In this document: positions 22,155-22,185 of the stretch, piece by piece | How the letters are laid out: every line of letters starts with the position of its first letter | How positions within the stretch are numbered: the stretch's first letter is position 1 | DNA from: Escherichia coli | GTDB taxonomy: Bacteria > Pseudomonadota > Gammaproteobacteria > Enterobacterales > Enterobacteriaceae | NCBI RefSeq assembly: GCF_044647545.1 | Contig: NZ_CP172818.1 | Length of the DNA: 64,000 nucleotides | Direction: 5' to 3' (one strand) | Translations under genes and position numbers: made by a program | Notes under the pieces: generated by a model | Database searches by the model: none | The model's input: only the letters and a program-made list of their open reading frames with translations | Told to the model about the DNA's origin: nothing

Positions 22155-22185
22155 TATCGCACCGCCGTTGTCTGGCGGTGCGATA
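22155..22185. other. Strong GC hairpin separating the yad fimbrial operon from panB (possible terminator / insulator)
   Basis: tatcgcaccgcc-gttgtct-ggcggtgcgata, 12-bp arms; no clear U-tract on either strand. Confidence 0.5.

Follow-up and report, generated by a model that had tools for sequence, protein, structure and literature searches.

Stable stem-loops that lack U-rich tails and stand at steady-state 3' ends block the exonucleases PNPase and RNase II (Dar and Sorek 2018, PMC6061677). The hairpin between yadC and panB in a 64,000-nt stretch of Escherichia coli DNA (the window, meaning the whole stretch that was analysed) resembles this class in being a stable G+C hairpin just past a gene end, with no uridine-rich sequence following it. 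The class is known from E. coli transcripts that are Rho-dependent or processed. The yad hairpin differs from it, however, in that only 74 nt of mildly C-rich sequence lie between the stem and a translated gene, any rut site there being putative. The 3'-end stem-loop is an ordinary element, of which the yad hairpin is most likely a further instance.

Palindromes of the REP/BIME type, such as that at malE-malF, can likewise shield upstream mRNA from 3' exonucleases. The yad hairpin is also a G+C-rich extragenic palindrome without a U-tract, but unlike the REP/BIME stabilisers it is single-copy, has no Rfam match and carries no REP consensus. With canonical intrinsic terminators it shares a G+C-rich, sense-strand stem-loop at the end of an operon and compensatory evolution of the stem, whereas the absence of a U-tract and the unusual closeness of the stem to the stop codon (4-8 nt) set it apart. 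The operon concerned, yadN-ecpD-htrE-yadMLKC, is repressed by H-NS, encodes a hypervariable YadC and has yadC as its last gene (PMC13245861).

The yadC-panB junction and its stem-loop

The features of the junction and of the surrounding block are listed below; arms and loop are given both in the letters of the window's plus strand and as the minus-strand RNA.

20423-21274, minus: panC, following panB
21286-22080, minus: panB, the first downstream gene, with its own promoter (from the open reading frame and RefSeq-annotated homologous loci)
22116..22143, minus: predicted panB promoter (consensus scan and conservation)
22124-22116, minus: extended -10 of panB, TGaTAAAAT (consensus scan)
22143-22138, minus: -35 of panB, TTGCCC, then a 16-nt spacer
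22144..22154, minus: A/U-rich spacer CGGAUAAAUCA between the hairpin and the -35, not a U-tract
22155..22185, minus: stem-loop (fold, covariation and covariance model match)
22155-22166, plus-strand letters: arm TATCGCACCGCC
22167-22173, plus-strand letters: loop GTTGTCT
22174-22185, plus-strand letters: arm GGCGGTGCGATA
22185-22174, minus-strand RNA: 5' arm UAUCGCACCGCC
22173-22167, minus-strand RNA: loop AGACAAC
22166-22155, minus-strand RNA: 3' arm GGCGGUGCGAUA
22189..22194, minus: tandem yadC stops TGA-TAA, the stem lying 6 nt past the TGA and 3 nt past the TAA
22192-23481, minus: open reading frame of yadC, fimbrial tip adhesin and last gene of the operon (the true start is possibly an internal ATG)
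22192..29750, minus: low-G+C yad fimbrial block, from folK to panB, with the hairpin as its panB-proximal edge
29403, minus: yadN start
29776-29778, minus: folK stop, at the upstream end of the block

A sequence-only reading of the window had reported a 12-bp-arm GC hairpin at 22155-22185, between the yadC stop and the panB start and on their strand. Both coordinates and sequence proved exact (a perfect inverted repeat with 12 of 12 pairs, a 7-nt loop and 67% G+C), and yadC, the hairpin and panB all lie on the minus strand. Read along that strand, the yadC stops are followed after 3 nt by the hairpin, then by CGGAUAAAUCA, the panB -35, the -10 and panB itself, so ordered that the hairpin ends 11 nt before the -35. 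The isolated minus-strand RNA hairpin has a folding energy of -22.3 kcal/mol, and an 81-nt minus-strand context reaches -27.6 kcal/mol (z = -5.1), a value matched by none of 200 shuffles. Chance was modelled with 40 dinucleotide shuffles of the 64-kb window, counting perfectly paired repeats whose arms measured 12 bp or more and whose loops spanned 3-10 nt; the shuffled windows contained a mean of 0.025 such repeats (maximum 1) and the real window contained 3. The hairpin is far beyond chance, and the structure is real. A 321-nt query spanning it was 99.7% identical to E. coli FDAARGOS_497, and positions 22141-22190 were identical to a homology arm of the published primer for yad deletion in CFT073.

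Transcription of panB is expected to start near 22108-22110 of the predicted promoter, which would put the hairpin at about -46 to -76. The panB promoter block was invariant in seven E. coli alleles although the sequence on both sides diverges, and ATTGCCC..CTGnTAGAATGC was kept in the panB promoters of Salmonella, Citrobacter, Klebsiella, Enterobacter and Kosakonia, the block reading ATTGCCC...CTGnTA(G/A)AATGC across genera including Escherichia. Part of the spacer, GATAAATCA, was invariant as well, and we infer from its position that it would suit a proximal UP element. As an observation in its own right, a 39-bp panB promoter stands unchanged between a polymorphic yadC and a polymorphic panB 5' end. 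Within 21900-22110 (211 nt, the panB 5' end and leader), 1,835 of 3,718 E. coli records had 80-90% identity to the window and a further 1,158 had 90-95%, while about 1,700 E. coli genomes were too divergent in this region for megablast seeding. As identity at the panB 5' end is low across genomes, the deep polymorphism of yadC spills over into the core gene panB.

The yad block has a G+C content of 0.35-0.47, compared with 0.55-0.56 in its flanks. In a PanB-anchored scan with one genome per species (80 Enterobacterales loci), folK was directly upstream of panB, 45-130 nt away, in most of the loci, whereas other fimbrial adhesin genes occupied the folK-panB site in E. albertii, Pseudocitrobacter and some Citrobacter. 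Because the low-G+C yad block sits between folK and the panB promoter, the hairpin marks the boundary between the island and panB, and its earlier description as such holds: it lies at the edge of the block, and folK and panB are adjacent in most other Enterobacterales.

Conservation of the pairing and the strand involved

A metagenome scan with an invariant 36-mer of the panB promoter gave 90 loci, which were pooled with the genome loci. From 96 E. coli loci, 27 distinct junction alleles were obtained, all of which fold a hairpin at the same place; three allele types have an internal mismatch. Such mismatches also occur in common alleles (the L091 type in 10 loci, the L105 type in 3), which speaks against strict maintenance of the stem. 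The stem starts 4-8 nt past the first stop and the loop measures 5-7 nt among the alleles. The arm itself varies, reading TATCGCACCGCC in the window and CFT073, GTAGCAGCACTGTCA in K-12 and ATTACAGCACCGCCA, ACCGCACCGCCA or TTGTGGCATCGCC in others, and the partner arm changes with it. The outer stem may be TATCG, GCAGC, ACCGC or TGTGG and the inner stem GCC or AGAG, while a GCACC...GGTGC core with 13-nt spacing is present in every allele type.

In an alignment of the alleles (A2), 85% of cells were paired, compared with 25-61% when partners were slid, and double substitutions were seen in six pairs (28 cells). The covariation score was 0.276 against 0.150 for shuffled alignments, and none of 500 shuffles reached 0.276. 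When the versions from O157:H7 and E. albertii were included, RNAalifold returned 11 consensus pairs, 7 of them with compensatory changes. The hairpin of these two types reads CGCACC-AGAG-TTCTG-CTCT-GGTGCG, its outer CGCACC/GGTGCG stem being common to the window. The covariation is consistent with selection on pairing. Template switching at quasi-palindromes can produce paired changes at the DNA level, and such self-templated repair could mimic part of the covariation; template-switch correction would not, however, favour G·U pairs. The locus, which is deeply polymorphic, offers a within-species example of compensatory evolution in what would be an RNA stem.

One-sided changes were used to compare the strands. 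In the 11 core pairs they comprised 12 G·U cells at 8 positions, valid only in the yadC-sense RNA, against counter-cells amounting to 2 A·C and 2 other mismatches. Energies of the sense hairpin ranged from -14 to -26 kcal/mol over alleles (-18 to -26 kcal/mol for the E. coli alleles) and those of the antisense hairpin from -10 to -27 kcal/mol; allele L005 folds at -20.7 kcal/mol in the sense orientation versus -10.0 in the antisense. The covariance model scored 45 bits on the minus strand versus 31.9 bits on the plus strand. The asymmetry is modest (8 versus 2 positions, p = 0.11; a hand estimate of independent events, 9 versus 1, gives p = 0.02), and C-to-T mutation bias could inflate it. As the pairing is kept while the arms change, and as one-sided changes are mostly sense-only G·U pairs, the element probably acts as RNA, and the pattern suggests that the functional molecule is the yad mRNA, on the yadC-sense strand.

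The window allele was found in 636 of 5,426 complete E. coli genomes, once per genome (median 1 place), and a pattern search of the window allowing up to 3 mismatches had a single match, the hairpin itself. The covariance model located the element at this locus in Escherichia only, with no match upstream of panB in other genera; a weak match at 53568-53603 lies within a coding region and was dismissed as chance. A permissive Rfam 15 scan of 21500-22800 placed no family on the hairpin and returned two chance-level miRNA matches away from it (E = 4.9 and 7.9). A REP/BIME or other dispersed repeat was excluded by the pattern search, genome-wide BLAST and the covariance model, all of which point to a single-copy element at the orthologous site only.

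Protection, termination and other readings of the hairpin

The stem and loop are of the kind seen in canonical terminators (12 bp, 67% G+C, 7-nt loop, -22.3 kcal/mol) and the position is that expected on the sense strand past the last gene of an operon, 6 nt beyond the yadC TGA, but the run of at least about 4-5 U within 8 nt 3' of the stem is missing. The sense tail, CGGAUAAAUCAU (/CGGAUAAA), has 1 U among its first 8 nt and scores 0.15 as a tail, whereas example tails of canonical terminators, used for comparison, score 3.4-5.1. Neither the window allele nor any of the 27 K-12/B2-type alleles has a U-tract, and a terminator scan of the window made no call at the hairpin site, in agreement with the sequence-only reading, which had noted no clear U-tract. 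For want of this element the hairpin does not qualify as a canonical intrinsic terminator. In E. coli, hairpins without a U-tract terminate poorly, and a stem 4-8 nt past a stop codon would be partly occupied by the terminating ribosome. Given the missing U-tract and a stem base 4-8 nt from the stop codon, efficient release of the polymerase by the hairpin alone is unlikely.

We consider it rather probable that the hairpin is a U-tract-less, 3'-end-defining and exonuclease-blocking stem-loop of the yad mRNA that causes leaky termination at most; both the blocking and the leaky termination are properties that we infer for it. In the proposed sequence of events, the yadC-sense hairpin would fold once RNA polymerase clears the yadC stop, termination by Rho or cleavage by an endonuclease would end read-through transcripts at a more distant point, and PNPase or RNase II would trim them back to the base of the stem of about -22 kcal/mol and halt there. 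The distal adhesin cistron would in this way be stabilised in a 7-kb mRNA that is H-NS-silenced and rarely made, and the panB promoter, which lies 11 nt further on, would at best be partly insulated. The 74 nt from the hairpin to the panB ATG are 26% C and 18% G (C/G 1.46), a mild bias over a short untranslated span. As only 74 nt separate the hairpin from translated panB and C/G is only 1.46, a Rho-dependent stop just downstream is doubtful, and for this reason the yad 3' end might need endonuclease processing of read-through RNA. An E. coli 3'-end dataset (eLife 2021, PMC7815308 supplement) lists no end near the K-12 equivalent, the operon being H-NS-silenced in K-12 laboratory cultures, and the supplementary data of PMC6131387 and PMC4681348 list nothing at the hairpin site. 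The yad literature searched contained no panB data on co-induction of panBC with yad.

The hairpin most likely marks the 3' limit of the yad operon, which in extraintestinal pathogenic E. coli is a fimbrial virulence factor, although the practical value of this is modest. Deletions or reporters of yad that keep or remove the stem may alter yadC mRNA stability or panBC read-through; the published CFT073 yad deletion retains the stem. The locus would also serve as a test case of whether U-tract-less hairpins beside promoters terminate transcription or only stabilise RNA.

The suggestion that the hairpin insulates panBC from yad read-through is plausible and survives in part, in that the hairpin is kept by compensatory evolution with a sense-RNA pattern, while the missing U-tract means that any insulation would probably be leaky. 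In its stronger form the hairpin would be a non-canonical intrinsic terminator, its long G+C stem, perhaps with NusA, NusG or collision with polymerase at the panB promoter, stopping most yad transcription and uncoupling both panBC expression and the panB promoter from the fimbrial operon. We hold this main rival to be unlikely, although it draws on the same structural and positional evidence as 3'-end protection and on the distance of only 11 nt to the -35 of a promoter whose conservation is strong. In E. albertii the homologous hairpin, which has the outer stem CGCACC/GGTGCG in common with the window, runs on into AACUUUUCUU, suggesting descent from a canonical terminator, and alleles without the tail have longer stems (12-15 bp versus 8-10 bp), as if stem strength had replaced the tail. 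Set against this are the tails of the other alleles, with 0-3 U in the first 8 nt and scores of 0.01-0.74, the strong RNA:DNA hybrid of the first bases past the stem (CGG), and the poor termination generally expected where a U-tract is missing and the ribosome partly covers the stem. A composite insulator, in which the stem pauses or back-tracks polymerase as it meets another polymerase bound at the panB promoter or UP region, is very unlikely; if true, fimbrial transcript termination would depend on panB promoter occupancy (roadblock-assisted), and a horizontally acquired operon would be tied to a core metabolic promoter.

Other readings place the function on the opposite strand or in the DNA. 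A plus-strand role, in ending or stabilising antisense transcripts that run from the panB promoter or 5'-UTR region into yadC, is highly improbable: the plus-strand RNA stem reaches -22.8 kcal/mol, its tail GUGUUAUC is richer in U than the sense tail (4 within 8 nt), the K-12 Cappable-seq plus-strand starts include 149533, 149626 and 149720, of which that at 149626 would cross the hairpin (PMC4782308), and antisense, Rho-sensitive transcription is reported inside yadC (PMC7815308 supplement), but wobble pairs favour the sense strand (12 cells versus 2), antisense stability collapses in some alleles such as L005, the fold z is -2.2 on the plus strand versus -5.1 on the minus, the covariance model scores lower there and no plus-strand gene at this place is in need of a terminator. 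Scarcely more credible is a DNA-level palindrome, either one bound by a dimeric regulator and centred close to position -61 of the panB promoter, or a quasi-palindrome maintained by template switching without RNA function, a junction relic included. Its centre falls about 61 bp ahead of the predicted start of panB transcription, a classic activator position, the core and its spacing recur in all allele types, a RcdA SELEX peak has been placed within yadC, between panB and yadK (PMC3535384), and template switching is known to generate paired changes; yet the half-sites are conserved in complementarity and not in sequence, G·U-only alleles break the DNA symmetry, the loop varies by 2 nt in length and the palindrome is absent from relatives that have this panB promoter without a yad operon. 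That the hairpin is a relic of the insertion junction, as had also been proposed, is not supported, because a relic would decay whereas here the pairing has been preserved through at least seven double substitutions in alleles of very deep divergence. No duplication or att-like signature was found at the hairpin junction, and comparison with the yad-less relatives searched revealed no homologous hairpin.

Related hairpins and neighbouring elements

The other fimbrial adhesin genes found at the folK-panB site usually have a terminal hairpin too, although one Citrobacter locus (L014) showed no obvious one. In Pseudocitrobacter faecalis (L012) a canonical terminator follows the adhesin gene, CCGGCAGGC-ACG-CCTGCCGG and then UUUCUGUUUU, with a tail score of 3.56, while the E. 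albertii hairpin has a U-run tail (UUUUCUU) yet a low tail score of 0.81. In 416 E. coli genomes (O157:H7, O55:H7, O145:H28 and others) an E. albertii-like adhesin gene was observed upstream of panB, where the panB promoter is of the TAGAAT type and the hairpin, CGCACCAGAG-TTCTG-CTCTGGTGCG, is shorter; the loci with the alternative adhesin are exemplified by O157:H7 EDL933 (L177, 2638-2772) and E. albertii (L009, 826-961).

Between the folK stop and the panB -35 of Enterobacter, Lelliottia and Leclercia there is a covarying A+T-rich hairpin, about 60-100 nt upstream of panB (loci L019, L020, L023-L026, L030 and L034-L036), with arm pairs CGATTAGCCA/TGGCTAATCG, ATAAACC/GGTTTAT and ATCCACAC/GTGTGAAT, none followed by a proper U-tract. 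Like the yad hairpin, these covary and lie just upstream of the panB promoter, past the stop of the upstream gene, but their arms are rich in A+T, the gene before them is folK and not a fimbrial one, and the covariance model does not match them. By that model, neither these hairpins nor the one of Pseudocitrobacter is detectably homologous to the E. coli element. Hairpins just ahead of the panB promoter thus recur with different upstream genes, and the general picture is one in which each upstream transcription unit ends in its own hairpin at that place.

Descent of the yad hairpin from an ancestral folK terminator was considered and rejected, as E. coli folK has its own A+T hairpin and U-tract after its stop and the spacers between folK and panB in other genera show no homology to the G+C hairpin; homology could not be established for a GGTAAT(C/T)G resemblance to Klebsiella and Enterobacter spacers. 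The folK hairpin, at 29750-29772 on the minus strand, 3 nt past the folK stop, is a perfect A+T-only one, TATTTATATT-ACG-AATATAAATA, then TTTTCTG, and is probably the pcnB-folK terminator.

HS-01 (L002, NZ_CP172817.1), the only E. coli found that seemed to lack yad, was set aside, since it looks like an assembly artefact and still contains the yadC tail and hairpin. At its positions 3170-3620, the expected place of the yad operon, there is a stretch of about 450 bp that is G/C almost throughout and includes some 20 G in a row, flanked by sequence from upstream of yadN and from the yadC tail, for which an assembly or polishing artefact is likelier than a natural deletion.

The Cappable-seq antisense starts listed for K-12 are 149533, 149626, 149720 and 150063, on the plus strand (PMC4782308). 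They correspond to roughly 22010-22550 on the plus strand of the window, and fall within panB, within its leader and a short way into the 3' end of yadC. In the same region, two sequences are each complementary to ATCATTTATCAGGA beside the panB Shine-Dalgarno, namely GGATAAATCAT, which lies upstream of the -35, and CTGATAAA, which overlaps the -10; the segments involved are 22086-22100, 22118-22125 and 22143-22157. Such pairings could form only in yadC read-through RNA and not in transcripts from the panB promoter. Sequestration of the panB Shine-Dalgarno (inverted repeats I1 and I4) was rejected, the pairings being by eye not conserved in the O157 or Salmonella types. At the other end of the operon, about 180 nt upstream of the yadN start and within the H-NS-regulated yad promoter region, there is a 15-bp perfect A+T-rich inverted repeat, TTAAATTTACTTAAT-TCAAG-ATTAAGTAAATTTAA, at 29580-29614; no other perfect inverted repeat in the window is as long.
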